Positions 18,185 through 34,530 of a DNA stretch of 64,000 nt are shown one piece after another. Positions within the stretch are counted from its first letter, which is position 1. Each line of letters opens with the position of its first letter. The translations under genes and the position numbers were made by a program. Source of the DNA: Eubacteriales bacterium (lineage in GTDB: Bacteria > Bacillota > Clostridia > Oscillospirales > CAG-272); contig JAZSHY010000025.1 of NCBI GenBank assembly GCA_045533505.1, positions 20,274-84,273 on the forward strand. The letters run 5' to 3'. Under the pieces are notes generated by a model. It did not search any database. It was not told the origin of the DNA and was given only the letters and a program-made list of their open reading frames with translations.

Positions 18185-21100
18185 TCACAGTCTTCTGCGC
18201 CTAATCAATATAAAGAGGGCAAGCGTAAGGTCTCCGACAACCACGAGGATTGCCAGGCCCGTGACCGTACCGTAGGTGCCGACGGAGTCCTTTTCTGCGT
18301 TCTCATTCTTCTTGCCAAGCTCCTCGCGAAGCTCCGAAAGCTCTTGTCTTAAGGCTGCGGAGGTAGCGTTGTCTCCCGCAAGAATCATGGCAACGATTTC
18401 CGCCTTGGCGGCCTCAACCAAGGCTTCCGTCTCCGCCTTGGTATCCGCGACGGCATCCCCGTACTCGGAAAGAAGTGTTTGCAGCGTATGTATGGCAGCC
18501 TCCGTCTCGGTGAATTTTTGGGCAACGGCTGCCGCATCTGCCTTGCTGCTTATAAGAAGCGCAACGTCTTGCGCAAGCCCTTCAACACGGGTGACAAGTG
18601 CAGCAACAGCTTCGCTGATGGCTGCGTCGGCAGCCTCAATAGCCTGTCTGAGCTCGACCTCAAGCGCCGCATCCCGGATATCGGAATCCTCCTTAGCCTC
18701 AGCAATTTTGCTGCTCAGCTCCTCGATGGCGGCTGCCAATTCCGAAGCATCGGCCTTAGCTGCCAAAAGAGCCGCGAGGTCGCTTTGCGCGCTCTCCAAG
18801 CCGTCAATCCGATTCTTTACAGCAGAGAAATCCTCCGAATAGGAATAGACCGTCAGGTCGGCTGCGACAGGCAGAATTTCAAACAGCATTGCCGCATCCG
18901 CCATGTCACCCGTCATCCTTTCGGGGTAATAGGACACCACAATACCCTCCCGATAAAGCCCCGCCTGCTGCATGTTCACAGAGGGGGCAACCGAGACACA
19001 GAGAGCACCGCATTCAAAAAGCGCGGGCAGAGCCTCCTCTAAGAGGGCTTTCATCTCATCGTTGCTGAGAATACGTCCCGAAAGCTGAATGGCTGTATGC
19101 GTTTGGTTGACGGTGCCGTTGACATCGACTGCCTGCGGCTTGGCAGCAACCGTCAGCCTTGCGGCTGTAACAAACACAAGGGTTGTGTACTCGGTGCGGG
19201 CATAATTGTTGTCCTCCTCGATGATAATCCGCACGACATAGTGCCCCATGGAAACGGGATAATTGTCGGGGGCAAGGAACTCATCGTCATCCGCCGCATG
19301 ACGGTAGAGGACGGTCACCGCGCCCGTAGGGGCAGGCATGCCGTCACCCCCGTGAATAAGAAGGTTTTCGGCGGTCAGAATGACGGGGGACATTGTCATT
19401 TCCGTTGTGAAAATCTTGTCAATCCCCTCCGCCTGCAGCTCACTGTCGGCATCCTGCACCGAGATATCCCCCGTGGCGACAAGCTCAACGGTGGGCTTTT
19501 TCTTGACGATCCTATCGCCCTTTTCAAACTCTACAATCAGCTGCTCAAACAGATAGTCAAGATTCAGGGCTCTCGCAATGTCGGGTGTAATCGGGATATA
19601 GTTGAGTGCTCTCATTTCGTCAAGCGTATACATCGTGTCGCCGATTATAAAACGGAAGGTCACTCCGTCTTCATGGCGTCCGATGCCGCTTGCCGCACCC
19701 GTCCCGTCAAAGCAGGGATACGCCATCTGATACTCCATCATCATGGCAAGGTACTCGCGTATCATTTGCTTGATTTCATCGGTTACGCCCTCGGCAACAA
19801 TCTCCACGTCGTCAACCGTGAAGACCGCGGAGGCGAGGTCATCCCCCTCACCGATGGTTTTGTCCTTTGCCACAACGGTGACACAGGCGGGCAGGACCGT
19901 CATTTTGACAGTTGTCGAGGCAGGCATATAGTCCTCGTCACCCTCAAAATAAATGCGCACCTGATAGGTTCCTGCCTCAAGGGGGGCTTGCTCCACCCAC
20001 TCGTAGTCGATATAATAAAGGAGTGAGAGCTGCTGCAAATAGCCGTTTGCGTCAACCTGAATCAACGAGGTGTCGTACGGGAGCCCCTCTCCCGTAAACA
20101 CCGCTTCCATATCAGAGGCGGTAATGGTCATTTCGCTCTTGACCGTAAGCTGCCCGACGTCGGTGCCGCCCGACGTATCTGCATGAATAATCAAAGGCGT
20201 CACGTTTTCGTCAAGGCTTGCGCTGTCCTCGTCGCTGATTACAGGGACGATGGTATAGGTGCCGGCTGCGGGAGCTGTGGTCACCGGGTTCCCGTCGCCG
20301 TCCAAAAAGCTGAAGGTCAGCCTCCCCTCGCTGATGGCGGCTGCCAGAGCCTCCTTGAAGGAGGACAGTGCCTCCTTAGAGAGTGTGTCGCTTGTTACAA
20401 TCAAATCCTGAATACCAAGCGCAGGCAGGGGATTGCCCGCAGACAGGCTTTGCGATTTCACGGCGATGCTGACGTCAGCCTTACCGATTACAAGCTTTTC
20501 GGGGCACTCCGCAGTGCCTTTATCGTAATTGGCATCCCCCTCATAAACGGCGGTTACCGTATATTCGCCCGCCGCGGTGGGAACCGTTTCGGAGCCGTTA
20601 TACAAATAGGTAACCGAGCCTGTCGGCGCGCCAAGGGCTTCCGTACCGTTTACCGTCGCGCTGAGAATTGGCGTTATCGGCTTGCCTTGATAGGTATAAG
20701 AGTACACGTTTTCCGCGTTCCAGGTGAAGGTAGGCGTTTCCTTGACCGTAAGGTCACCGCCCTCCGCATTCAGCACGAAGATGTAGTTTTCGCTCAGCGC
20801 TTCAACGCCGCCGTCAACCAGCGTAATCGCGTTCTCATATATGCCGGGAACCGAGCTGTCGATGCTGCCATTCGTCACCAAAGAAAGCTTTCCGTAAATG
20901 GTAGCCGTTTTCAGGTCGGATTGATTTCCGCTGACGGTAACGGTGGTGGCGGAAGCCACCGTATCAATCGAACCGCCCTTTACAACGGTTTGAGGCTTGG
21001 GGGTGACGGTAATGGTGGCGGGAGAAAGCCTTACCACCGTTTCGTCCTCCACCGAATAGGTCACTCCGTTTTGGGTGACCGATATCACGCATTTATATCT

Positions 21101-22255
21101 GCCGGCGTCGCTGACACTCTTAAAATAGAGCGTGGATTGAGACCATCTTCCGCTGGCGCTGGATGAAACGTTTTTAGTCGTATTCACCCACTCCCCGGCG
21201 GCTTCGTCATATTTGTACCAGGCAAAGCTGCTTTTGGAAAGGCCAAGCGCATAGCCGGAGGCCCGCAGAGAGTGGTATTGAACACCGTCAAAGCTGTTTT
21301 CGGCCTTAAACGTCCAGTCGTAGGAATCCTCAAAGCTGCAGCTGACGCTCGAACCGAAGGTCCACTGCGCAGTCGCTCTGTAAAGAGTGGCTTCTTCGGG
21401 CGTGAAGGTATCTCCGGGCTTAAAAGCACCCACGGCAACCCATGCTTGGGCATCGACGTCGTATCGGCTCAGCATCCAGTCCACAAACTGATAGCCGTCA
21501 ACCGAATAGGTGTTTTCGGGCAACACGTAGGGGCTGCCGTCAGCCGCAAAGGCTTCGTTGACGGTAGCCGCAGAAAAGCCGTCTGAATACATAACGGCTG
21601 CATAGCCGTCGTTGGGCAGCCACATGGCGTAATATCTGTCGTGCTCCTTAGATTGACGGTGCGTGCAGACAGAGCCGTTCAGATGCGGATTGTTGAACCA
21701 GCCGCCAAAGGTGCAATTCTCCTTGACAAAGTTGGTAGCAAGCACGCCTGCCTCATCGGTCAGGCTGCCGTGGAGCACCCCGCCGTTTGTGTTCGCAACC
21801 GACGCGGTTTTATCAAACGTGCAGCCTCCCCCCTCGTTGCCGCCCTTCAGCAGGGCTTCCAGCGCAGGGTTCGCAAAATATATCACGCAGGTATTTTTCA
21901 TTTCCACAAAAATCGGATTGTTCGGGGAGCCGCTCGCTACGCTTGACAGAGTATACGGCAGATATATCTGCGTAGCGGCAGAGCCGCGGAACGAGGACGA
22001 CTGCAAATAATTAACCGTGTAGGTGAAATCTCCGTTGGTCACGGTCTCGGGCATAATGACGGCACCCACAGTATCCTTACCGCCCGAGCCGGGAACATAG
22101 GCCGTGCCCGTTTTGCTTCCTGCGTCCTCGGTGCTGACGCGATATTTCACTCCGTCATAGTGGAATTCATCTCCCGATGCAGCCAAACCGGTTATTGCCA
22201 AGCTGCCGGCAAGAAGAACCAAAGCCATTACCAAAAAACAAACCTTTTTCTTCAC
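18185..22255 (-). CDS. large cell-surface protein: signal peptide, BspA-like LRR region, Listeria-Bacteroides-type repeats, MBG-like repeats, coiled-coil stalk and C-terminal TM anchor
   Basis: GTG at 22255 with GGGAGA about 9 nt upstream gives MKKKVCFLVMALVLLAGSLA. Repeats include FGGWFNNP and GYQFVDW. A recurring pattern is AG(E/T)Y(T/Q)V...EGD(A/E)(N/D)Y. An Ala/Glu-rich heptad-like stalk ends in GLAILVVVGDLTLALFILIRRRRL. Confidence 0.75.
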   Translation of the reverse strand: MKKKVCFLVMALVLLAGSLAITGLAASGDEFHYDGVKYRVSTEDAGSKTGTAYVPGSGGKDTVGAVIMPETVTNGDFTYTVNYLQSSSFRGSAATQIYLPYTLSSVASGSPNNPIFVEMKNTCVIYFANPALEALLKGGNEGGGCTFDKTASVANTNGGVLHGSLTDEAGVLATNFVKENCTFGGWFNNPHLNGSVCTHRQSKEHDRYYAMWLPNDGYAAVMYSDGFSAATVNEAFAADGSPYVLPENTYSVDGYQFVDWMLSRYDVDAQAWVAVGAFKPGDTFTPEEATLYRATAQWTFGSSVSCSFEDSYDWTFKAENSFDGVQYHSLRASGYALGLSKSSFAWYKYDEAAGEWVNTTKNVSSSASGRWSQSTLYFKSVSDAGRYKCVISVTQNGVTYSVEDETVVRLSPATITVTPKPQTVVKGGSIDTVASATTVTVSGNQSDLKTATIYGKLSLVTNGSIDSSVPGIYENAITLVDGGVEALSENYIFVLNAEGGDLTVKETPTFTWNAENVYSYTYQGKPITPILSATVNGTEALGAPTGSVTYLYNGSETVPTAAGEYTVTAVYEGDANYDKGTAECPEKLVIGKADVSIAVKSQSLSAGNPLPALGIQDLIVTSDTLSKEALSSFKEALAAAISEGRLTFSFLDGDGNPVTTAPAAGTYTIVPVISDEDSASLDENVTPLIIHADTSGGTDVGQLTVKSEMTITASDMEAVFTGEGLPYDTSLIQVDANGYLQQLSLLYYIDYEWVEQAPLEAGTYQVRIYFEGDEDYMPASTTVKMTVLPACVTVVAKDKTIGEGDDLASAVFTVDDVEIVAEGVTDEIKQMIREYLAMMMEYQMAYPCFDGTGAASGIGRHEDGVTFRFIIGDTMYTLDEMRALNYIPITPDIARALNLDYLFEQLIVEFEKGDRIVKKKPTVELVATGDISVQDADSELQAEGIDKIFTTEMTMSPVILTAENLLIHGGDGMPAPTGAVTVLYRHAADDDEFLAPDNYPVSMGHYVVRIIIEEDNNYARTEYTTLVFVTAARLTVAAKPQAVDVNGTVNQTHTAIQLSGRILSNDEMKALLEEALPALFECGALCVSVAPSVNMQQAGLYREGIVVSYYPERMTGDMADAAMLFEILPVAADLTVYSYSEDFSAVKNRIDGLESAQSDLAALLAAKADASELAAAIEELSSKIAEAKEDSDIRDAALEVELRQAIEAADAAISEAVAALVTRVEGLAQDVALLISSKADAAAVAQKFTETEAAIHTLQTLLSEYGDAVADTKAETEALVEAAKAEIVAMILAGDNATSAALRQELSELREELGKKNENAEKDSVGTYGTVTGLAILVVVGDLTLALFILIRRRRL

Positions 22256-22546
22256 CTGGTATACTCTCCCTTGCTTTATACGAATCAATTTAATAAAATC
22301 AATTGTACACTATAACCTCCTGTGATTCAATTCTGCTTCTCCCCGAAAATATCTTCTGTTGATGGCAACGGCTTTGTGCAAGTTCAACAAAGAATGCTTT
22401 ACGCGATAAAAAAAGCCCCGAAGGCATAGGGCTTTCAAGGCTTCTTATTGTGCAGGGAAGGATGCGCCGCGGAGAATTTACGTCCTTGCCGTCGAAGCAT
22501 CTTGGCAACGAGCGCCATAGGCATATAGCCGAGGTCAAGGCAAGTC

Positions 22547-24303: not shown

Positions 24304-25728
24304 CTATACTTTTTTGCTGTATGCCATAAGAAAAACAAGCACGGTGCCGCTAACAGCTGTCAGAGAAACCCATAGAACGAGGGTTGTGTTATCGGCAGCT
24401 GCGGGCGCGTCGGGAAGCTCTGCGTCATAGATGTTTTCAAATGTTGCACTCAAGGAATCCGCACTCTCACCGTCCATGGTGAAGGCGGCAATCAATTCGT
24501 TGCTTTCGTTCAGGAGCACGGTAACCGTGATTTCATGCACGTCGTCATCGTACGTCATGCCCGCAAGGCCCTCGTTGATTTCGGAGAGCTCGTAGGTATA
24601 GGTCTTGCCTATGTCTGCCCCTGTAAAGCTCAGAGAGAAGGAGGCCCTGCCATTGCCGTCGGAGGTTGCTGTGAGCCCCTCGGAGGTTGCTGTGTTTTTC
24701 AGCACGAACCGAAAACCGTCCGCCCCGTGTCGGGCCTCGCCTATGCTGTTGACAAGCTTATGAACAAAAATCGGCACGGTAATGGGTTCAGGCTCAATAG
24801 CTTCAGGGGGCAGGAAGGTATTGTTGAATGTGACGAAAACCGCATGCCCCTCCTGTGTTTCGGTTATCTCTGCGTTCTCGGTGCCCGAAACGGTGTTGAC
24901 CTCCAGGCTTCCGTCCATATCCGTGTCGGTCACAAGGACGGTAAAGTGATTGACGGTTTCGTCGCAATCCGCGTCAGACTCTCCGACGACCTCTCTCATG
25001 CGGAAGGTGTAGGTGCCGACCTTGTCAAAGCTTAGCGCCCGAAAAATCTCATTAAAGGAGAACCGATTGAAATCTGCCGCCGCGCCGTAGGTCACGGTCT
25101 GCTCGCCGAGCCTCGTCCAGCTCTCGCCGTCCTTCTGCTCCAACACGAACGTGAAGCTGTCGCCGTCCTGCCAGTCGCGCCCCTCCAGGAGCTTGACGCC
25201 GCCGACGGTGACGCGGCTCGGCTGCACGGCCTCGGGAGAATAGGTGTTCACAAAGGAAACGCTTGCGTCGCCGTCCTCCCCCACCGTTACCGTCCTTTCG
25301 GCCTCGCCCTTCACAGCAAAGCCGTCAAGCGCTGTGGGCTTCTCGGTCACCCGTACAACGGTGCCCTCCGCAAGGCCGAAAAGCCCAAAGGTGACACCCG
25401 GCTTGACGGTAACCGTCAGGGTGCCGCCTTCGTCGGCGGTGAGAGCCCCCGCGGTTGTTTCCAGCCTTGCGCCCGCATAGCGGGCCCCAAGCTCCACTTG
25501 AAAATCAAAGCTGATATTGTCGGGAAGCACATACCCATCCCCAAGCGGATGCTCCACCGTCTTGCAAAGCGAAAGCCTGCCCGCCTCTGCCGTGCCCGGA
25601 ACGAACACACCGGTCAAGGGCTCTGTCTTCGCCACGATGTAGCAATAGGTGGTTCCTATCGTCGATACCATCAGCAAAAAAAGCGACAGCACCATTGCTA
25701 TTCTTCGTATACCTGTTCCTTTTCGCAA
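24304..25728 (-). CDS. pilin-like protein: SipW-type signal peptide, three pilin isopeptide-type (Spy0128/CnaB-like) domains and a C-terminal TM anchor
   Basis: TTG start with GGAGGAGG 8 nt upstream. N-terminus is LLMVSTIGTTYCYIVAKTEPLTGVFVPG. Three repeats each end in F-x-N-x-(Y/F): SFVNTY, TFNNTF, TFENIY. Each has an upstream K and an F-x-F-x-L strand. The C-terminus is LPDAPAAADN, then a 21-aa hydrophobic helix, then KKV. Confidence 0.7.
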   Translation of the reverse strand: MRKGTGIRRIAMVLSLFLLMVSTIGTTYCYIVAKTEPLTGVFVPGTAEAGRLSLCKTVEHPLGDGYVLPDNISFDFQVELGARYAGARLETTAGALTADEGGTLTVTVKPGVTFGLFGLAEGTVVRVTEKPTALDGFAVKGEAERTVTVGEDGDASVSFVNTYSPEAVQPSRVTVGGVKLLEGRDWQDGDSFTFVLEQKDGESWTRLGEQTVTYGAAADFNRFSFNEIFRALSFDKVGTYTFRMREVVGESDADCDETVNHFTVLVTDTDMDGSLEVNTVSGTENAEITETQEGHAVFVTFNNTFLPPEAIEPEPITVPIFVHKLVNSIGEARHGADGFRFVLKNTATSEGLTATSDGNGRASFSLSFTGADIGKTYTYELSEINEGLAGMTYDDDVHEITVTVLLNESNELIAAFTMDGESADSLSATFENIYDAELPDAPAAADNTTLVLWVSLTAVSGTVLVFLMAYSKKV

Positions 25729-25835: not shown

Positions 25836-26555
25836 TTATTTCCACGGACAGCCCACACGGCTAAAGGCACCGCTGTCGCTCACTGTCTGACTGTGGACCA
25901 GAATCTCGTATTTCCCATCGCCGTTGCCGTAAAGCCGATTGACGACATCGCGGGAAACGCTGCTTCTCAGCAAAATCTGAAGAAGGCAGGGGGGCGTTGT
26001 TTCGCCCGCGTTCAGCTCTTCGTTATACTCTGCGCAGACAACGGCGTATTTTGTGTCCCCGATTTTCACTCCCCACTCAAGCTCGCTCCATGTCCAGTCG
26101 GTGGAATTTCGGTTAAGAAGAACCGCCCTCCTGAATTCCTCCTCGGAGAGCTCGCCCATTTCGAAGGCAAACCACGTGCGGATATAGCCGCCCGTATTGC
26201 CTGTATTGGTAACGGCAACAATATGGTCCCGTGCATTCTTGACGGTATACATTTCCTCCCGCGAAGAAAGCGAGGTCTTAACCGTACGGTTCCCGTTGTC
26301 GGTCACCGAGAGCTCCGCCGCAAGCAGCATACTCTCCGGCTTTGGATTTTCTTCTGTTATCGGAAGCAGCATGGGCACCTCCGAGACAGGGCGCAGCCCT
26401 GTGCCGTCACGCTCCAGCTCAGACTGAACGATGGATAAGTACGGCGTGCCGGCGCGGAGGTCGCCGAGCGAGCCGTAAACCGCAACCACGGTCAGCAGTG
26501 CCAAAAGCGCGGTTATTCCCATCCATTTAATGACATTCAACACGTCATCTCCCAT
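25836..26555 (-). CDS. TasA/camelysin-like protein with an atypical N-terminus
   Basis: The core VTNTGNTGGYIRTWFAFE parallels VENTGKTDAYVRTIIAFE and VENTGKSDAYYRTLIALE in the two large paralogues. The C-terminus YEILVHSQTVS parallels YDILVASQAIQ. The ATG overlaps the upstream stop (TGATG). Confidence 0.65.
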   Translation of the reverse strand: MGDDVLNVIKWMGITALLALLTVVAVYGSLGDLRAGTPYLSIVQSELERDGTGLRPVSEVPMLLPITEENPKPESMLLAAELSVTDNGNRTVKTSLSSREEMYTVKNARDHIVAVTNTGNTGGYIRTWFAFEMGELSEEEFRRAVLLNRNSTDWTWSELEWGVKIGDTKYAVVCAEYNEELNAGETTPPCLLQILLRSSVSRDVVNRLYGNGDGKYEILVHSQTVSDSGAFSRVGCPWK

Positions 26556-26782
26556 CAATCGTGATTCTCATAGCGGATAAACGGTATGACGGAGAGCCAC
26601 AAGCGCCGCCTCCGGCGCCTCCAATAGCGCTGCGTACTGCCGCCTGTTCTGCCGATTTCACTGTTCAGGTATCTCAGCTCACTGCGGAAGCCGTGCAGCC
26701 AATACACAAAGGCAGCCAAAAAGCCAAAGCCCATCGCGGCAACGAGCAATCCAACCAATATCCAAAATCCCGTATCTTCCAT
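26555..26782 (-). CDS. small single-pass membrane protein with an Arg-rich tail
   Basis: 75 aa. FWILVGLLVAAMGFGFLAAFVYWL is a TM helix, followed by RYWRRRRRRLW. The gene is translationally coupled to the downstream gene. Its RBS is weak. Confidence 0.45.
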   Translation of the reverse strand: MEDTGFWILVGLLVAAMGFGFLAAFVYWLHGFRSELRYLNSEIGRTGGSTQRYWRRRRRRLWLSVIPFIRYENHD

Positions 26783-26930: not shown

Positions 26931-28643
26931 TTACTGAGGCTGTTCGATAGGTTCCCAGCCACCGTCAGCAAGATATCTGCCGAGCTCGCCGTGAAAGACA
27001 CCGCCGGTAACGGTAACATTCTCGCGGGTGCTCTTGTCGCCGCCGCCGAAGCAAACGTCACCGATAAAGGTGCCGCCTGTAATTTGGATGTTGGTGCCTG
27101 CAAAGCTATCGCCGTACGAATAGGAGTACACGCAAACGTCGGTCTCCGTGTTGGTGCAAATCAGCTCACCGCCGTTGATGGTCAGATTTACGGGGCGAAC
27201 GTTGTTGATATTGCTGCCGGGCAGCTGAACCCAAATGGCACGCTTGCCGGTAACGGTGCCGCCATTGACAGTGACGTTGGTAGACAGGGTGTTGGAATTG
27301 CAGAACATACGGATGGCGCACTTGCCGACGCCGTCAATAACACCGTCGTTAACGATAAGCTCCGAGCCCTGATAGCAATCGATTGCATAGGAAGCACCGC
27401 CGGGGGCAGTAACATTCTTTACGGTAACGCCATCTATAATCAGCTTGCCCTCACACTTGATGGTGTTGTTGGCATAGCCGGGGAAGGCGGGCTGGCCTTC
27501 GCCGCCCCAATTGATGTCGGGGGTGGTGGCGCCAAAGGTAACAACCCCGTCGCCGGTCAGGGTGAGAGCGGCACCGGCCTTAACCGTAATCATCGCAGAA
27601 GCCGAGGCGTTTGTGGCAACGCCGGAAACCGTGTGGCCGTTTGTGTTCAGCACGGCATCCCCCGTCACGGTCAACGGCGCATCGGTAAGTGTGATGTCAT
27701 CGGTAAGGATAACCTCTCCGCCGTCGGCAAGGGCAGCCTTCAGCTCATTGGCAGAGGACACGAGCGCGGGAAGCTTCACTCCATCAGTCCAAGGATGGTT
27801 CGTGGTGGTGATATCTCCAAAGCCTGCATCAAGAGCTGTTTCGGCATCAGCAAAGCCTGCCGTCTGAATTGCCTGAGAAGCAACAAGGATGTCGTAAGCA
27901 CCGTTCTTGTTGCCGTCAATCGCTTCAACGGTCTCGTTGGTAGCTGCGGCCTTCATGTAAACCTGTGCAAGGCTGGGATAGGTGGTGTCGCCGGCAGGCA
28001 GAACGCCATTTTCATGAACGCCGCCAAAAGCCTTTGCGCCGTTGTAGATATACTCGGAAACGAAATAATTGTTGCCGTCAATCGCAGCAATGCCGATGTC
28101 CGTTACCTTCCAGACACCCTGTGCCGTCATGAAGCTGCTCGTTCCGATGAAAGCATCAAACTCATCCTCAGTCAAAGAACCGATTTCGAAAGCAATAATA
28201 GTACGTACATAAGCGTCGGTTTTACCGGTGTTTTCCACGGTTACGAATTTGTCCTGAACGTTCTTATTGACGAACACATCCATAGAGCCCTGGGAGCCAA
28301 CCTGGGACATTTTAACGCGGGTGCTGCCATAATCACCGGCACCGTAGTTGTAGGGAAGGCCATTGGCATCGATTTCAGTAGCAGGCAGCAGAGGCTTAGC
28401 CTGAGAGAAGTCCTTCAGCACATAGCTTGTTACACCGTCGATTTCTTCGGTCTTGTAAGTGCCGTTTTCAACAACACGCTCGTATTCGTGCTGCTCGATT
28501 TTGACGTTGCCGAGCGTCATAACGCTGACCGCGCTGTCCTCGCTTGTCAGATAGGCCACGGTGCCGCCGATGGCAAGTGCCGCAACCAACACGCAAGCGA
28601 CGCACAACAGAAGTCCTTTTTTCAGCTTTAAACCTTTAGACAT
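26931..28643 (-). CDS. TasA-like N-terminal domain fused to a right-handed beta-helix adhesin-like module (570 aa)
   Basis: ATG at 28643 with AAAGGAGA upstream. Signal peptide ...LVAALAIGGTVAYLTSEDSAVSVMTLGNVKIEQHEYER. TasA-like core runs to SQAIQTAGFADAETALDAGFG. The C-terminal half has repeating G-rich beta-helix turns (NGGTVTG, NGGELIC, TGGTFIG, TGGVFHG). Confidence 0.75.
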   Translation of the reverse strand: MSKGLKLKKGLLLCVACVLVAALAIGGTVAYLTSEDSAVSVMTLGNVKIEQHEYERVVENGTYKTEEIDGVTSYVLKDFSQAKPLLPATEIDANGLPYNYGAGDYGSTRVKMSQVGSQGSMDVFVNKNVQDKFVTVENTGKTDAYVRTIIAFEIGSLTEDEFDAFIGTSSFMTAQGVWKVTDIGIAAIDGNNYFVSEYIYNGAKAFGGVHENGVLPAGDTTYPSLAQVYMKAAATNETVEAIDGNKNGAYDILVASQAIQTAGFADAETALDAGFGDITTTNHPWTDGVKLPALVSSANELKAALADGGEVILTDDITLTDAPLTVTGDAVLNTNGHTVSGVATNASASAMITVKAGAALTLTGDGVVTFGATTPDINWGGEGQPAFPGYANNTIKCEGKLIIDGVTVKNVTAPGGASYAIDCYQGSELIVNDGVIDGVGKCAIRMFCNSNTLSTNVTVNGGTVTGKRAIWVQLPGSNINNVRPVNLTINGGELICTNTETDVCVYSYSYGDSFAGTNIQITGGTFIGDVCFGGGDKSTRENVTVTGGVFHGELGRYLADGGWEPIEQPQ

Positions 28644-28706
28644 AGTATATATCTCCTTTTCATATAAGTCTGAAGGGCACGGGGGCGCCCTTTTCAAACC
28701 CTTTCA

Positions 28707-30602
28707 TTATTGATTGTTGTAAATAACGGTAACACCCTCGTACGTCTTTAAGCCTTTAACGCCGTACTGATCGCCGCCGAAGATCTGGTCGAACGGGATT
28801 AGTTCCATATGGTGAGTTGTACACTGCGAATGATCGTAATCGGCGGGAAGGCCGCCATACGCATAGCCGGGCTCAACACGCATGCCGCGGCCATTGTTAT
28901 GACCGGGAGTAGGATCGCAGTAGTGATAATTTGCCCAATCACCGTATGTAACGGTTACGTTTTTGCAGGTGATGTTGTATTTGCTTGTATCGGGATAGTT
29001 AGCTCCGTCAATCGTCGTGGTTTCCGCCAAGCGTCCGATAATCATACCGCACATACGGTAGTTGTAATAGTCATAGGATGCGGTGCAGTCATTGTAAACG
29101 TCCAGACGGCAAGCGATATCTACGTTTTCAAAGTTGTAGGTAGCGCCGGGCTCGGCCTGGCCGACAATGCCGCCTGCCGAGCTGTCAAAGGAGCCCCAAA
29201 GGCCGCCTATTACAACATCCTCGCCAAGGGTGATATTCTTGAAATTATAGGTACCGGCACCCGACCAGCCGATAATACCGCCAATTCCGTTGTTATACGT
29301 TCCGATGCTGCCGCTCCTGATTTCGATGTTTTCGAAGGTGCAATCACCGGTTGCGCTGCCTGCGATAAATGCGATATCGCCACCCTCTACCTGGCAGTCA
29401 AAGCCTTCAAGAACAACGTTTTTGACGGTTGCTCCTTCAAGTTCAGAAAACAAGCCGATGGAGCCATACTTTCCCCATTCGTAACCGAAATCCCAACCGC
29501 TTTGGTAAAGGCTTGCGATGGTCTTGCCGTTCCCGTCAAAGGTCCCCTTGAACGGCTCTGTTATCAGCCTGCCGCTGCTGTCTCTCTCCGAGGTGGAGCC
29601 AATCGGCGCAAAGCTTTCGCCGCCAAGGTCAATATCCACACCAAGCGTTATGGTTTTCCCCTCGAAGTTGTTGCTGTCTTCCGCGACGAGTGCCGCGAAG
29701 CCGGCAAACTGCTCGGCAGAAGACAAGGTGAACTCCGTGTCGGTTGCGTTGTACCAAGAGGTGTCGGCAGTACCGTCCCAAGCATCCACAGAATGCTTGG
29801 CAACAACACCTTGGAACCACTCGGCGGCGGCTTCATCCGTCACATCGCCAAAGCCGGAATCCAAAGCGGTCTCGGCATCGGCAAAGCCCGCTGTCTGAAT
29901 TGCCTGGGAGAGAACGAGAATCTCGTATGTATCGCCAAGCAACGCCATATCCTCGTTGGTTGCATTGTGTGTCAAAACCACCTGAAGGAGAGAAGGACGG
30001 GAAACCTCACCGGGAGTCAAGCTTTCGTTGTAGGTGGCACACCACACCTCGTAGCGTGTTCCTTCAACGGTGATATAGCCTACGCTATAATCCCAAGTAA
30101 AACGGGAGTTGCCGTTGACGTTGACATTGATTTCATCATCATCGGAGTAGCCGATTGTCATACCCTCGGGGCATTCCAGAGCAATCAGCGTGCGGTAATA
30201 GGCATCACTCTTGCCGGTGTTCTCAACGAACACAAACTTATCCATCACATTTGAAAGCTTGCTGTCGTTCCAAAGACCGTTCCAGCCCGGGCTGTAAACA
30301 CCCCAGTGGAAGCAGCTGCCTTCGGCCTGCTCGGCCTCGTAGGCATCCTCTGCCGTAGGGACTGCGGGATAAAGGAGCTGCCCCTGAACAAAGGGAACAA
30401 GCTCGCCCTCCTGTGCTCCGGCATTGATATGGCCGACGCCCTCGGCACGCTCGTATTCGTGCTGCTCGATTTTGACGTTGCCGAGCGTCATTACGTTGAC
30501 GGCGCTGTCCTCGCTTGTCAGATAGGCCACGGTGCCGCCGATGGCAAGCGCCGCAACGAGGACAAGACCGAGGCATGACAGAAGCATGGTTTTGAGTTTC
30601 AT
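28707..30602 (-). CDS. TasA-like N-terminal domain fused to a GLUG-like repeat / beta-helix module (631 aa)
   Basis: The N-terminus is near-identical to the 26931 gene. The core reaches SQAIQTAGFADAETALDSGFG. The C-terminal half has SAEQFAGFAALV, GIGGIIGWSGAG and SAGGIVGQAE motifs of the GLUG type. Confidence 0.75.
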   Translation of the reverse strand: MKLKTMLLSCLGLVLVAALAIGGTVAYLTSEDSAVNVMTLGNVKIEQHEYERAEGVGHINAGAQEGELVPFVQGQLLYPAVPTAEDAYEAEQAEGSCFHWGVYSPGWNGLWNDSKLSNVMDKFVFVENTGKSDAYYRTLIALECPEGMTIGYSDDDEINVNVNGNSRFTWDYSVGYITVEGTRYEVWCATYNESLTPGEVSRPSLLQVVLTHNATNEDMALLGDTYEILVLSQAIQTAGFADAETALDSGFGDVTDEAAAEWFQGVVAKHSVDAWDGTADTSWYNATDTEFTLSSAEQFAGFAALVAEDSNNFEGKTITLGVDIDLGGESFAPIGSTSERDSSGRLITEPFKGTFDGNGKTIASLYQSGWDFGYEWGKYGSIGLFSELEGATVKNVVLEGFDCQVEGGDIAFIAGSATGDCTFENIEIRSGSIGTYNNGIGGIIGWSGAGTYNFKNITLGEDVVIGGLWGSFDSSAGGIVGQAEPGATYNFENVDIACRLDVYNDCTASYDYYNYRMCGMIIGRLAETTTIDGANYPDTSKYNITCKNVTVTYGDWANYHYCDPTPGHNNGRGMRVEPGYAYGGLPADYDHSQCTTHHMELIPFDQIFGGDQYGVKGLKTYEGVTVIYNNQ

Positions 30603-30680: not shown

Positions 30681-31364
30681 TCAGCTGCCGCCGGGGCCGA
30701 TGAGAGCCCAGGCTTCCGCGGCGGAGTCAATGGCGTCGATGTCGGCATCGCGCTGTACGGCATAGCCCGTGACGGTCATCCTCGGGTAGTTGCCGCTGTG
30801 AAGCTCCCGAAGCATTTCCCCCGTTACGCTGTCCTTGACTTTGACTTCGTCGTTCTTTAATACAGAGAACACCTTGTCTTCTGCGCTCGCGTCTGTCGCA
30901 CGGAAGTAAACACCGGGAGTGCCCTGTAAGGCCGTCCAGCCGTCGGCAACGGCATATTCGATGTAGTCGCCGAGGGCCTTGTCGCCGGATTCCCGAATCT
31001 CCACAAACAGCCAGCAAGCCTCGCTGTCAGCCAATACGGAAATCTTCGTGTCCTTTTCAATCGTCTTGCCGGGTGTCATCTTGAAATAGCGTCCGTCGCT
31101 CAGCACCTCGCCCTTCGTTTCGGTGAGGGTTATGCGGATATCGCCGTAGGTGAACACGTTGACGACGGGGTCGGTTCGGGCTGTCAGCCACGCAAGAGAG
31201 CCGCCAATCACGGAGAAGAGCACGAGGCAGGCCGCAAGAGTCATGAGTGCCGCCCTGAGGGCAGGGCCTCTGCCGCGATGGCCTTCCCCGCGAGAATGTT
31301 TTCCGAAAGACATGGGTTGCGTTTCTCCTTTCTCTTTATTTTGTATTTCAGTAAGCGGAGGCAT
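30681..31364 (-). CDS. TasA/camelysin-like secreted protein with a SipW-type signal peptide
   Basis: ...LAACLVLFSVIGGSLAWLTARTDPVVNVFTYGDIRITLTE. ATG at 31364 has GGAGG 7 nt upstream. An alternative ATG at 31313 follows AAAGGAGA. The ORF-track start at 31457 would overlap the upstream gene. Confidence 0.7.
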   Translation of the reverse strand: MPPLTEIQNKEKGETQPMSFGKHSRGEGHRGRGPALRAALMTLAACLVLFSVIGGSLAWLTARTDPVVNVFTYGDIRITLTETKGEVLSDGRYFKMTPGKTIEKDTKISVLADSEACWLFVEIRESGDKALGDYIEYAVADGWTALQGTPGVYFRATDASAEDKVFSVLKNDEVKVKDSVTGEMLRELHSGNYPRMTVTGYAVQRDADIDAIDSAAEAWALIGPGGS

Positions 31365-31395: not shown

Positions 31396-32037
31396 TTACT
31401 TGGAGAACGCCGACCATGCCTCATCGGCATCGGCAAAGCCGGCTGCCTGAACCGCATGCGCTTCGACGGTAATTTCCAAATCAGAAACGGCGGCGAGCTG
31501 CGCGCCGTTCATAGCCGAGGGAACGGTTATCGCGTCAAAGAGCGCATCGAGAACAAGGTCAGCGTCCTTCTCCGCCCTGACGGTATCGAAATAGCGGAAC
31601 TCGTAGATTGCCGTGCCTGCCACCTCGTCCTTGACAATGGCATCGGTGGCAACCCACACGGAGCTATCCCAGCCCGCAACAAAATACCGAAGCAGGAAGG
31701 GTTCGCCGAAGATGGCCGACAGCTCGTCGTAGCAGCTGACGGTGACAAGCATACGGACATAGGCCTCCTCGCTCCCCCTGAGAACAGTAACCGTAGGGTC
31801 CTTGGTGTAGGTCTTGCCGGGGACGAGATGATACGCGTTGCCGTCCTCGGTTCTGCCACCGATTGGCTCTCCGCGTTCGTTCACGGCAGCTTCATCAAGC
31901 TTCAGGTGCACCTTGCCCACGGTAAAGGTATTGACGACCTCGTCCGTGTCCTGTAAATAGGCAACAGTCCCGAGAACGGCTGCCGACACCAGGAGAACAG
32001 CACACAGCAGGAGGAGTATCGGTTTGGTTTTTTTCAT
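31396..32037 (-). CDS. TasA/camelysin-like protein, candidate major fibre subunit (213 aa)
   Basis: MKKTKPILLLLCAVLLVSAAVLGTVAYLQDTDEVVNTFTVGKVHLKLDE is the SipW-cognate signal pattern. It is single-domain and sits first after sipW. AAGGAGA RBS. Confidence 0.75.
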   Translation of the reverse strand: MKKTKPILLLLCAVLLVSAAVLGTVAYLQDTDEVVNTFTVGKVHLKLDEAAVNERGEPIGGRTEDGNAYHLVPGKTYTKDPTVTVLRGSEEAYVRMLVTVSCYDELSAIFGEPFLLRYFVAGWDSSVWVATDAIVKDEVAGTAIYEFRYFDTVRAEKDADLVLDALFDAITVPSAMNGAQLAAVSDLEITVEAHAVQAAGFADADEAWSAFSK

Positions 32038-32067: not shown

Positions 32068-32577
32068 TCATGTTTTATCGTCGGTGACAGCGTCTACCGT
32101 CATCACGAAAACGACAGCCGCCATTGCCACGCCGATGGCAACGTAAAGCCCGGGCGGATTTTGGATATACATAGAAAGATACCCGAGAAGCGGAATACAG
32201 AAGATTACCTTGCCTTCAACCTGCTCAAATTCCACAAGAGCTCGGTCAAAGTCGTCGTTGTTATCTCCCTTGGTGCGAAAACGGACGATGCCGGGATCGT
32301 CCTCGTCGGGAACGAGCTCCTTGATTCGGTGGGTGGCTGTGGTCGTATCGGTTATCCGATAGGTAATGACATCCCCCTCCTTCAGGCTTGCGGGGTCGGC
32401 ATCCGCAAGATAAATGAGGGAGCCTGTGGGATACGTCGGCTCCATGGACGGAGAAAGAACCGCGAGAACGTCAAGGCCTGCGATTCTGACGCCCACAAGG
32501 AGAATGGCAAGGAGCACCACCAGAATCACAAGGGAATGGGAGACAAGCCTTAATGCTCGTTTTAAAATTCGGTTCAT
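32068..32577 (-). CDS. sipW: signal peptidase I, SipW (archaeal/ER) type
   Basis: N-terminal TM helix, catalytic Ser box LSPSMEPTY, His box ATHRI, KGDNN box, and a C-terminal TM helix. Confidence 0.85.
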   Translation of the reverse strand: MNRILKRALRLVSHSLVILVVLLAILLVGVRIAGLDVLAVLSPSMEPTYPTGSLIYLADADPASLKEGDVITYRITDTTTATHRIKELVPDEDDPGIVRFRTKGDNNDDFDRALVEFEQVEGKVIFCIPLLGYLSMYIQNPPGLYVAIGVAMAAVVFVMTVDAVTDDKT

Positions 32578-32601: not shown

Positions 32602-33189
32602 TCAAACCGCAGCTTCCTTGAAATACTGCTCAACCGAACGGTAAATCACACGGAACACATGCTCGCTGTAATCGTCATCCTTATTCATTCTGTCACAATG
32701 CACCTTCACGGCAAAATCCAGCATCACGTTCAGCACGTGGTTGAGAATCATCCACGTGTCGGCCTCGGCCCTGAAGGCATCCCGGAATTTTTTCACAAGC
32801 GGCGCATACCGTTGCTTATGCGCCTCGTAGGAGTATTTTTCGAAATACGGGGAATAATAATAACGGACAAAGGCAAGACACCTTTCCCTGTTGCCGAGAA
32901 GGAACCCCCACATTGCCGCAAAGAAAAGCCTGCACCGCTTTTCGTACCCCAGCTCTTGCCTGTACATGACCTCCACGTGCTGCAGCGCTTTTGCCACAAG
33001 CTCCTCGTCCAGCCTTTCAAAGGCGGTTGAGAGAAGGTCCTCCTTATCCTTAAAAAAACGGTAAATATAGGCTTCGTTGATGTCGGTTCCCTTGACAATG
33101 GCCTTCGTCACGGTTTTATCCAAGCCGTTCTCGGCAATGACTGTAATTGTCCTGTCCATCAGTCTGTTTCGCACATCATAGTGCTTCAC
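32602..33189 (-). CDS. TetR/AcrR-family transcriptional regulator
   Basis: The HTH region is ITVIAENGLDKTVTKAIVKGTDINEAYIYRFFKDKEDLL. GTG at 33189 has AAGGAGG 9 nt upstream and is preferred over ATG at 33213. Confidence 0.75.
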   Translation of the reverse strand: MKHYDVRNRLMDRTITVIAENGLDKTVTKAIVKGTDINEAYIYRFFKDKEDLLSTAFERLDEELVAKALQHVEVMYRQELGYEKRCRLFFAAMWGFLLGNRERCLAFVRYYYSPYFEKYSYEAHKQRYAPLVKKFRDAFRAEADTWMILNHVLNVMLDFAVKVHCDRMNKDDDYSEHVFRVIYRSVEQYFKEAAV

Positions 33190-33330
33190 GGGAAATGGCC
33201 TCCTTTTCTGCATTGTTAAGTGTTTGCTACTTTTGTGACAGAAAAATAAGCAGACAGCTCCCCCTTCGGTTCCTATGCCTCGGTTTTACGAACATGACGA
33301 ACACACGGAGGCTGTCGGCCTCGCAACATA

Positions 33331-33423: not shown

Positions 33424-34530
33424 TCAAAGACCGACGGCAGAAAGCTTGTCCATATTGGCCCGCTTCAAGGCGAGAGAGGAATGCACATAGCGGTCCAGAG
33501 TGACCTTGGCGCTGGCATGGCCGAGGATTTCACTCAGCGATTTGATTTCAAAGCCGACCTCAACGCACCGTGTGGCAAAGGTGTGGCGGAGCGTATGAAA
33601 ATGCACGTCCCTCAAGCCGCAGGCCTCCGTGTATTTTGCAAGACGGTATTGCAATACACGCGGCTCAATATAGCGAAGCGGTTCGCCCGTCAGCACGTAG
33701 GCCTTCCCGTTAAAGACATGCATTCGCTTGCACAAATCAAACGCCGAGGCACTTAACGGAATCTCTCTTTTTGAGGTTTGGCTTTTAGCTTCCCCCACGG
33801 TGATTTTGGTTTTTGCGCTTGAGGATTTGTCAAGAATTTGCAGCCTCTGCATGGTAGAGGAAACACGAATCACGCGGTCTGCCACCAAAATGTCCTCCCA
33901 TTTCAACGCGCAAACCTCTCCGATGCGAAGCCCGGTAAGCAGCGCGAGCAGCACCCCGAACCTCACCTCGTCCATATCGGACAGCAGAAACCGAATAAAC
34001 CGCTGCTGCTCCTCCGGAGTCAATACGCGCATCTCCCTTTTGCGTTCCTTGGGATAAATCACCTCAATGTCGGGGAAGCCTTCCCCTATTTGCCGTCGGC
34101 AATGTCTGAGAACAGCCTTTAACACCACCAAAATGTCGCGAACGGTTTTCGGCGACAAGCCGTCCGATAGCAACGTATGGGAAAACTCCTCAATCAAGAC
34201 GGTGTTGAGGCTTTGAGGAAGATATCCCCCAAGAGCCGGTTCTAAGTGCCGCTTGACCGTGTTATAATATTTTACGTAGGTTGACTCCTTCACTCTGCTT
34301 CGGGACAGCGTGAGCCACTCGGCACAGAAATAACGGAGGTCCCGTCTGTTGGAGGCGGGCCTCGTGTGTCCTGCTTGCTTGGCGGCAGTCAGCTTTTCTC
34401 TGACCTCGCGGTAGGTTTTTGCGTAGACATACCCGAAGCGCGTCTTGCCTCTGCCGTCATACCCCTTGATATAACGCCCTTCCCATCGGTTGTCCTTGCG
34501 CTTGTAAATGTTTTCGCCTCGTCTTGCCAT
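33424..34530 (-). CDS. tyrosine site-specific recombinase/integrase with an N-terminal Arm (AP2-like) DNA-binding domain
   Basis: N-terminus YKRKDNRWEGRYIKGYDGRGKTRFGYVYAKTYREVREKL. Catalytic residues are intact: LLTGLRIGEVCAL (R), HFHTLRHTFAT (HxxR), LGHASAKVTLDRYVH (H...Y). Confidence 0.85.
   Translation of the reverse strand: MARRGENIYKRKDNRWEGRYIKGYDGRGKTRFGYVYAKTYREVREKLTAAKQAGHTRPASNRRDLRYFCAEWLTLSRSRVKESTYVKYYNTVKRHLEPALGGYLPQSLNTVLIEEFSHTLLSDGLSPKTVRDILVVLKAVLRHCRRQIGEGFPDIEVIYPKERKREMRVLTPEEQQRFIRFLLSDMDEVRFGVLLALLTGLRIGEVCALKWEDILVADRVIRVSSTMQRLQILDKSSSAKTKITVGEAKSQTSKREIPLSASAFDLCKRMHVFNGKAYVLTGEPLRYIEPRVLQYRLAKYTEACGLRDVHFHTLRHTFATRCVEVGFEIKSLSEILGHASAKVTLDRYVHSSLALKRANMDKLSAVGL

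Follow-up and report, generated by a model that had tools for sequence, protein, structure and literature searches.

TasA-type fibres are homopolymeric biofilm scaffolds known from Bacillus, to which C. perfringens and archaea have been added more recently. The locus considered here lies in a 64,000-nucleotide stretch of DNA from Eubacteriales bacterium (GenBank assembly GCA_045533505.1, contig JAZSHY010000025.1, positions 20,274 to 84,273 of the forward strand), denoted the window, to which all coordinates below refer. It encodes a SipW-type signal peptidase, several TasA-like proteins, and two large proteins, BIG1 and BIG2, in which a signal peptide and a TasA-like N-terminal domain (N-domain) are followed by a large beta-solenoid C-terminal module (C-module). 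BIG1 and BIG2 are interpreted, with a probability of about 0.6, as modular building blocks of a TasA-superfamily surface fibre that depends on SipW, and the conserved, undescribed SipW operon that contains them probably builds an adhesive surface fibre. For the BIG proteins themselves, we infer SipW cleavage, donor-strand assembly, a position in the fibre, and a binding function.

TasA fibres form by donor-strand exchange (PMC9674648), and TapA is described as the provider of the nucleating strand for TasA (PMC10151520). The window locus resembles the TasA/CalY system (PF12389, with SipW and TapA) in its in-operon SipW-type peptidase; its GGTxA/(A/Y)(F/L) cleavage region; the spacing of the N-terminal strand to a Gly and a Glu; its colinear xVxNxG and AxQ strands; its beta-sandwich; and an accessory anchor-like protein. 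However, TasA and CalY are single-domain proteins of ~200–260 amino acids (aa) from Bacillus, whereas the BIG proteins occur in uncultured, anaerobic gut Clostridia and carry a C-module of 285–376 aa. The window N-domain also differs in having ~70–100 extra loop residues, in failing PF12389, and in giving no direct TasA profile signal. In C. perfringens, BsaA subunits are joined by an intermolecular Asn-Lys isopeptide lock, and donor-strand exchange has been proposed (PMC7395162; PMC11580942). A C-terminal FAST fusion of BsaA is still secreted and surface-exposed, and operons with multiple paralogues, SpaA-type domains, and sortase signals have been noted (PMC11580942). The BsaA/BsaB/BsaC operon and the window operon are both clostridial sipW operons with several TasA-like paralogues and a larger accessory protein, and conserved Asn, Glu, and Lys residues in the window operon recall the Asn-Glu-Lys (N-E-K) triad by their positions, but BsaA is single-domain and no beta-helix fusion is described there (PMC7395162; PMC11580942).

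By analogy of architecture, the closest precedent for the BIG proteins is TafC of the archaeal Tat-fimbriae, in which an N-terminal pilin-like domain precedes a laminin-G domain at the C-terminus; models place TafC at the tip and make TafF the membrane anchor (PMC11821415, PMC12337348). The likeness lies in the two domains, a donor-strand beta-sandwich and a putative binding domain, and in genes that stand beside those for a peptidase, major and minor pilins, an anchor, and a regulator. TafC differs in being archaeal, often Tat-dependent, and equipped with laminin-G; it has no detectable sequence relation to the BIG proteins, and its tip position is itself a model. The tip adhesins FimH and PapG likewise pair a pilin domain incorporated by a donor strand with a binding domain, and present alternative adhesins on a common shaft. 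Their domains stand in the reverse order, however, with the lectin at the N-terminus and the pilin at the C-terminus; the pilin domain of the tip receives a strand instead of donating one; and they are sequence-unrelated proteins of Gram-negative chaperone-usher systems. For the C-module, the comparison is with the serine-rich repeat protein (SRRP) of Lactobacillus reuteri (5ny0/5nxk) and with PF20585, since both concern a right-handed beta-solenoid adhesin of a gut Firmicute. In contrast to the BIG proteins, SRRP is SecA2-exported and LPXTG-anchored, and the BIG1 C-module falls below the PF20585 threshold.

No description of a bacterial TasA-type domain fused to a beta-helix module was found in the literature searched. 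At this locus, the TasA-type assembly domain would serve as a carrier for large, exchangeable beta-helix modules. If true, this would explain how abundant gut anaerobes display adhesins or glycan binders at a distance from the cell with no classical sortase pilus operon at the locus, add a missing domain family to Pfam and PGAP, and offer a natural scaffold for the display of cargo on self-assembling fibres.

BIG1 (26931–28643, minus strand, 570 aa) consists of a signal peptide (28554–28643), a TasA-like N-domain (27789–28553), and a beta-solenoid C-module (26931–27788). BIG2 (28707–30602, minus strand, 631 aa) consists of a signal peptide (30525–30602), a TasA-like N-domain (29838–30524), and a linker helix with C-module (28707–29837). 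The BIG1 open reading frame (ORF; 26931–28697) begins with a TTG at 28697, but the ATG at 28643 (MSKGLKLKK) is the likelier start and is taken as such because AAGGAG stands 8 nucleotides (nt) upstream. BLASTP marks the pair as paralogues (E 7e-50) that resemble one another to a meaningful degree only in their N-terminal halves; beyond about residue 290, the alignment has low identity and many gaps. The shared N-terminal beta-sandwich domain measures 230–255 aa, and the C-terminal extensions (285 aa in BIG1, 376 aa in BIG2) are unrelated to each other. An earlier prediction, made by a model from the letters of the DNA, had put these extensions at about 290–380 aa, and had quoted peptide strings that are all present in the minus-strand translations. 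BIG1 contains VTVENTGKTDAYVRT, SQAIQTAGFADAETALDAGFG, NGGTVTG, NGGELIC, TGGTFIG, and TGGVFHG, and BIG2 contains VFVENTGKSDAYYRT, SQAIQTAGFADAETALDSGFG, SAEQFAGFAALV, IGGIIGWSGAG, and AGGIVGQAE. The two-part layout that it proposed also holds: a SipW-type signal peptide, a TasA-superfamily domain, and a large beta-solenoid are encoded together as single genes. The proteins end in ...GGWEPIEQPQ (BIG1) and ...GVTVIYNNQ (BIG2), and neither translation has an LPXTG-type sorting signal or a membrane helix at its C-terminus, unlike a sortase-assembled pilin.

Both hydrophobic signal peptides end in AIGGTVA and are followed by YLTSEDSAV(S/N)VMTLGNVKIEQHEYER, with cleavage predicted at A30/Y31 in BIG1 and A26/Y27 in BIG2. 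The model for SipW-cognate signal peptides, TIGR04088, matches BIG2 (E 4e-4, 20.5 bits against a cutoff of 19), and BIG1 has the same motif inside a near-identical tract. The SipW-type peptidase gene is located four genes upstream, and a SipW-cognate signal peptide and its type of peptidase are encoded in one operon.

Profile comparisons lead us to regard the BIG N-domain as a probable, divergent TasA-superfamily member that has long insertions in its loops and falls outside PF12389 as currently defined. The N-domain profile aligns in hhalign with the families of W213 and W258, the two small TasA-like subunits encoded in the operon, at 99.8% probability over 208 columns and 98.8% over 188 columns, respectively, and with W240, a further TasA-like protein of the operon, at 99.9%. 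In turn, a set of 30 canonical N-domains is matched by W213 over the first 102 columns (88.6%) and by W258 over the first 76 (96.1%). These canonical N-domains, which in other bacteria are fused to the same C-modules as those of BIG1 and BIG2, pass the gathering score of PF12389 (Peptidase_M73, 22.5 bits), spanning up to positions 3–187 of 196, and reach TasA (8AUR) in hmmsearch at E 1e-8 through PGD..FENNGSLAIKE and NKYQG..FSFEATQ. All 10 relatives tested pass PF12389, seven of them with canonical rather than window-type N-domains; in P0194, P0197, and P0207, whose N-domains show a weak alignment with the window type (24–27% identity), the match ends at about residue 75. Global hhalign of the N-domain with the canonical set places the motifs in the same order, DKFVTVENTGK on VeNeGSL, ATNE on gNEY, and ILVxSQAVQ on itvlATQ, a colinearity that appears in the global alignment only. 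Counted from the cleavage site, TasA AFNDIKSKDATFASGTLDLSAKE and BIG1 YLTSEDSAVSVMTLGNVKIEQHE reach the conserved Gly and Glu after equal lengths, with hydrophobic residues at shared positions 2, 12, 17, and 19.

A number of results weigh against this assignment. PF12389 gives no match to BIG1 or BIG2 even at E 10, whether whole proteins or N-domain fragments are used, and Pfam and NCBIfam searches of the whole proteins return the signal-peptide model only. PDB sequences searched with the single BIG1 and BIG2 sequences and with family profiles contain no relevant match. A profile of 169 N-domains has no direct signal with the TasA sequence (checked residue for residue against 8AUR) in hmmsearch or hhalign, and the same is found for the W213, W258, and W240 profiles. 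Local hhalign of the N-domain with canonical camelysin-like domains is confident over the signal peptide and first strand only (46 columns), so that homology of the core depends on the chain through W213 and W258 and on the colinear motifs. Structural searches are of similar tenor. Every whole-chain Foldseek match of the two models in the PDB lies above E 1e-3; for BIG2, AbpA, a bundling pilin of archaea (7ueg, E 0.022), and the fibre of TasA (8aur, E 0.27) are non-significant entries among many weak beta-sandwich matches, and for BIG1, TasA is missing from the top 50. The claim of the original prediction that both proteins begin with a complete TasA-like unit is therefore retained in part: the profile chain and the colinear motifs place the domain probably in the TasA superfamily, but with no match to PF12389 or in the PDB it is not a plain TasA or camelysin domain.

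The N-terminal strands stand out within the domain. Residues 26–56 are among the most conserved, with a top-residue frequency of 0.74–0.83 versus 0.48 in variable regions, and together with the DKFVxVENTG..E strands, the N-terminal strands are the most conserved parts of the N-domain. Residues ~28–39, the counterpart of the TasA donor strand at residues 28–38 (PMC9674648), have a predicted local distance difference test score (pLDDT) below 50 in both BIG monomer models, which were calculated with AlphaFold2 (AF2). At the DNA level, a 115-nt tract encoding the signal-peptide end, the cleavage site, and the N-terminal strands is identical at 108 of 115 positions between BIG1 (28471–28585, minus strand) and BIG2 (30442–30556, minus strand), and identity between the paralogues is 0.9–1.0 within the tract versus 0.2–0.6 in the flanking DNA. 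From this pattern, the tract looks as though it has been homogenised by gene conversion, and with the same N-terminal segment both proteins would fit one acceptor. Taken together, the conservation, the low-confidence residues 28–39, and the apparent gene conversion suggest that the N-terminal strands form an intermolecular interface.

Three further positions are conserved across the BIG, W213, and W258 families: an Asn in the N[TV][FM]T strand, a Glu at the strand end, and a Lys before the xVxNxG strand. They correspond to S40, E53, and K132 in BIG1 and to N36, E49, and K122 in BIG2, with equivalents in W213 and W258. The window BIG1 has Ser in place of the Asn, and TasA has the Glu and the Lys with the Asn missing. 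As a sequence pattern, this set recalls the N-E-K isopeptide lock of BsaA.

A beta-helix fold for both C-modules is supported by structure prediction. The AF2 models, built on family alignments, have a mean pLDDT of 86.9 and a predicted template modelling score (pTM) of 0.79 for BIG1 and a pLDDT of 86.3 for BIG2. Residues 293–570 of BIG1 are modelled as an all-beta solenoid with pLDDT mostly above 90. Its top Foldseek match is the binding region of L. reuteri SRRP (5ny0, E 6.9e-3, probability 0.97, identity ~16%), and weaker matches include pectate lyase A (PelA), a PL6 alginate lyase, polygalacturonases, and AlgE4; the model and these weak matches together describe a right-handed parallel beta-helix. 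The BIG1 C-module reaches only E 0.85 with PF20585 and no lyase or hydrolase family at threshold, whereas the C-modules of close relatives match PF20585, the "putative pectate lyase-like adhesive domain". The BIG2 C-module is solenoid-like, with weak PDB matches to GH87, PL3, and a tailspike. Among predicted viral structures (BFVD), the BIG2 model matches A0A8S5VQE1 over its full length (E 4e-8, 605 columns) and A0A8S5TTR3, a "putative immunoglobulin A1 protease" (E 3.5e-5, probability 1.0, 340 columns, rmsd 5.9), which is a predicted structure of a phage-metagenome protein named by automatic annotation. The latter match agrees with weak Pfam hints of Peptidase_M26_N and Glug. A0A8S5VQE1 derives from "viral" metagenome contigs and apparently has the same two-domain layout, being either a prophage copy or from a mis-binned bacterial contig.

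The prediction of the two C-terminal halves, a check that had been suggested beforehand, thus gives confident beta-solenoids rather than disorder or an unrelated fold, and the adhesin-like beta-helix foreseen for BIG1 is borne out by the AF2 solenoid and its best match to an adhesin region. The GLUG label proposed for BIG2 fares less clearly. The Pfam models are not reached, with 8.9 bits (E 3) against a gathering score of 20.5 for PF07581 Glug and 15.3 bits (E 0.012) against 27.7 for PF05342 Peptidase_M26_N, and no solved GLUG structure appears in the top 50 PDB matches of BIG2, but the structural match to the protein named an IgA1 protease lends the label indirect support. "GLUG" is a reasonable description of the BIG2 module, though below the family threshold.

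Fusions of this kind are widespread. The N-domain profile was used for the survey of N-terminal fusions that the original prediction had recommended, in a search that covered 1.84 billion entries with cluster representatives at 50% identity, and it matches 7,523 representatives at E<=1e-3 and 1,053 at E<=1e-30, that is, more than 1,000 strongly matching clusters. Among the best 150 representatives, the domain always starts at residue 1–34 and 143 are at least 390 aa long, so fusion is the rule in this subfamily, contrary to the rarity that had been implied. The 80 fetched loci hold 173 N-domain ORFs, of which 138 reach 400 aa or more. BIG1 and BIG2 each have >1,000 database relatives, which places the shared layout well outside chance. 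The named source records of the relatives are all animal-gut metagenome-assembled genomes (MAGs) of Oscillospiraceae, Acutalibacteraceae, Eubacteriales, or "Clostridia bacterium", and every source name reads "hypothetical protein".

The two halves of the proteins are combined freely. Among 240 relatives, the window-type N-domain is paired with the BIG2 module in 69, with the BIG1 module in 46, and with other modules in 54, and both C-modules are also found behind canonical TasA-type N-domains (~60). The modules behind the same N-domain vary from PF20585 to Beta_helix and BspA-type leucine-rich repeats (LRR), and longer relatives that have the BIG2 module behind other N-terminal regions carry Flg_new repeats, DUF6562, or a Mfa2-like domain. 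The BIG1 and BIG2 modules also travel together elsewhere, since P0230–P0240 (919–927 aa) combine a BIG1-like C-module (30% identity), a BIG2 C-module (73%), and DUF6562, in the absence of a window-type N-domain.

The surrounding operon is more constant. The gene order (TetR)-SipW-W213-W258-[1 to 5 BIG]-(W240)-W474 is seen in most of 16 fully mapped loci, all from gut Clostridia MAGs, where W474 denotes an isopeptide-domain protein. W213 directly follows SipW in the related operons, W258 keeps its position, W240 is present in some, and W474 comes last. Within 10 kb, the 80 loci include SipW in 59, W213 in 65, W258 in 60, and W474 in 48, the W213 and W258 counts being possibly inflated by cross-matches through the shared signal-peptide region. 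An invariant pair of small subunits, cargo subunits that vary in number, an anchor-like end protein, and a dedicated peptidase form the pattern of a heteropolymeric pilus, and polymerisation of the BIG proteins into such a fibre, or capping onto it, is a plausible fit to the conserved operon.

In the proposed mechanism, each BIG protein would be exported by Sec and cut by the SipW peptidase of the operon at GGTVA/YLTSED (the A/Y bond). The freed N-terminal strands (YLTSEDSAVxVMTLGNVKIEQHE) would then complete the beta-sandwich of an adjacent TasA-like subunit, for which W213, W258, or another BIG protein are the candidate acceptors, and this donation would fix the BIG protein within the fibre or at the fibre end. 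The C-terminal beta-solenoid, most likely an adhesin for glycans or surfaces, would be the working part on display. W474 would act as an isopeptide-type immunoglobulin-like (Ig) stalk whose C-terminal membrane or cell-wall sorting segment makes it the likely cell-proximal anchor, and the fibre would be rooted by W474, W240, or both. A tip or cap position of the BIG proteins is favoured over in-line lateral display because their genes are interchangeable and variable in number. An extended version of this proposal, which is put forward tentatively, sees in the operon family a possible third, so far undescribed type of Gram-positive adhesive pilus: a donor-strand fibre of SipW-processed TasA-like subunits, possibly with an intermolecular Asn-Lys isopeptide lock, rooted by a Spy0128-type stalk protein with a sortase-like PPTGD signal and capped by swappable beta-helix pilins, whose C-terminal modules would be shuffled between species to change binding specificity.

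The BIG proteins might alternatively be free secreted enzymes (lyases or hydrolases) or soluble binders, for which SipW would serve in export only and the N-domain would be a non-polymerising scaffold or carbohydrate-binding module. Folds like those of the C-modules are typically found in enzymes that act on polysaccharides (pectate lyase, PL6, polygalacturonase, GH87, PL3), yet no enzyme family is reached at threshold. Weak Foldseek matches relate the N-domain to CBM2, CBM3, and cohesin sandwiches, against which stands its homology, along the full length, to the small pilin-like paralogues encoded in the operon. Conservation of the BIG2 C-module is unusually high, with 62–85% identity across hosts whose N-domains are ~40% identical, and this conservation, which could equally point to an enzyme, counts against membership of a fibre. 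The N-domain is most conserved in its N-terminal strands, a region that the monomer models leave unstructured and that gene conversion apparently keeps identical in both paralogues. A product of a SipW operon can be released, as the VWA-domain protein BsaC of C. perfringens is secreted as a monomer (PMC11580942), but the BIG genes always lie between the conserved small subunits and the anchor-like protein. Free enzymes or soluble binders are, on these grounds, considered unlikely.

It is also conceivable, but distinctly improbable, that the BIG proteins homopolymerise to give a fibre decorated along its whole length in the manner of a bottle brush, with the small subunits having other roles. 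A donor-strand region and a full acceptor domain are both present in each BIG protein; TasA and BsaA homopolymerise, and BsaA tolerates a C-terminal fusion (PMC9674648; PMC11580942). In the TasA fibre, however, C-terminal residues 239–261 form an inter-subunit interface (PMC9674648), so that a module of 30–40 kDa on each subunit may clash. The occurrence of 1–5 different BIG genes, but always of both small subunits, fits a shaft with alternative accessory proteins, and the donor strand common to BIG1 and BIG2 suggests one partner for both.

That the long BIG ORFs are assembly or sequencing joins of separate genes has a negligible probability, given that independent Logan contigs cross the junction of BIG1 (X2, 27738–27985; X4, 27750–27894) and that of BIG2 (X1, 29349–30531; X4, 29754–29957) with none of the frameshifts that the original prediction had named among the marks of such joins, that indels within ORFs are all multiples of 3 while those of 1–2 nt are all intergenic, and that full-length relatives of identical layout are present in ENA, JGI, NCBI, and Logan assemblies. 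The Logan contigs are of low depth, come from gut and faecal metagenomes, and span both junctions rather than whole genes. One of them, X3, jumps from 30445 to 28475 between the paralogues at a shared 46-nt stretch, and the repeat can therefore mislead assemblers locally.

The genes of the cluster are all on the minus strand, with intergenic gaps of -4 to 148 nt. The first encodes a TetR-family regulator (32602–33213, minus strand; PF00440, E 3.6e-8) and is separated by 24 nt from the next gene; a TetR homologue occupies the same position in 16 of 80 related loci. It is followed by the SipW-type (archaeal-like) signal peptidase I (32068–32577, minus strand, 169 aa), which scores above the cutoff of TIGR02228 (E 6e-25) and under the equivalog cutoff of NF046067 SipW (E 7e-25). 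In one related operon (loci L001, L002, and L064, 5021–6238), the SipW homologue measures 350–403 aa versus the usual ~170–185 aa and has an extra fused region. A preprint on AbpX describes signal peptidase I fused to an accessory DUF5305 in TasA-superfamily loci (10.64898/2026.01.04.697558).

W213 (31396–32037, minus strand, 213 aa) is a small, single-domain TasA-like subunit that matches PF12389 weakly; its SipW-cognate signal peptide exceeds the TIGR04088 cutoff (E 1.6e-6). The second small subunit, W258 (30681–31313, minus strand), has 210 aa when counted from an internal ATG (MSFGKHSRG...). Beyond the BIG genes lies a gene for a predicted membrane protein of 75 aa with an Arg-rich tail (26555–26782, minus strand), which overlaps the W240 gene by 4 nt; it has no family match in Pfam or NCBIfam and a homologue in only 1 of 80 related loci. 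W240 (25836–26558, minus strand) begins with a hydrophobic helix, which is followed by a TasA-like core domain; the N-domain hidden Markov model (HMM) matches this core at E 2e-37. The LxIVQSELE strand is present, but the GGTxAY cleavage motif is missing from the helix, and judged by this sequence W240 may therefore stay membrane-tethered.

W474 (24304–25728, minus strand) is a Spy0128/FctA-type isopeptide-domain protein (PF12892, E 1.5e-26; DUF7601; TIGR03786, E 8.5e-22) that has a SipW-like signal peptide and, at its C-terminus, a membrane helix, and is a candidate for the base or anchor of the fibre. Its family has a conserved N-terminal N.F.P strand, which resembles the NTFT/NVMT strand of the other subunits. 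At the C-terminus, 22 of 35 family members have a P.TG motif (mostly PPTGD), a hydrophobic helix, and a K/R tail, an arrangement that looks like a sortase sorting signal. The window W474 reads PAAAD (C-terminus, 24304–24450) where relatives, including those of loci L005, L009, and L032, have P.TG, and because of this replacement, it is perhaps membrane-anchored only. A crude scan with a strict motif pattern matched no sortase gene, either in the window or, within 10 kb, at the 80 loci. A scan for promoters and terminators performed no better than on shuffled sequence and does not inform the limits of the operon. A search for RNA runs returned none.

Directly upstream of the TetR gene is a tyrosine recombinase (33424–34530; Phage_integrase, E 2.6e-24), and a region of ~24 kb (about 18000–42000) has a G+C content of 0.50–0.57 versus 0.60–0.64 in the flanks. 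Because of the adjacent recombinase and the lower regional G+C, the operon may be located on an acquired island. Just downstream of the operon, beyond nagA, a predicted surface protein of 1,367 aa (18185–22288, minus strand) has a signal peptide, a weak MBG-domain match, an Ala/Glu-rich and probably helical C-terminal region, a membrane helix, and an RRRR tail.

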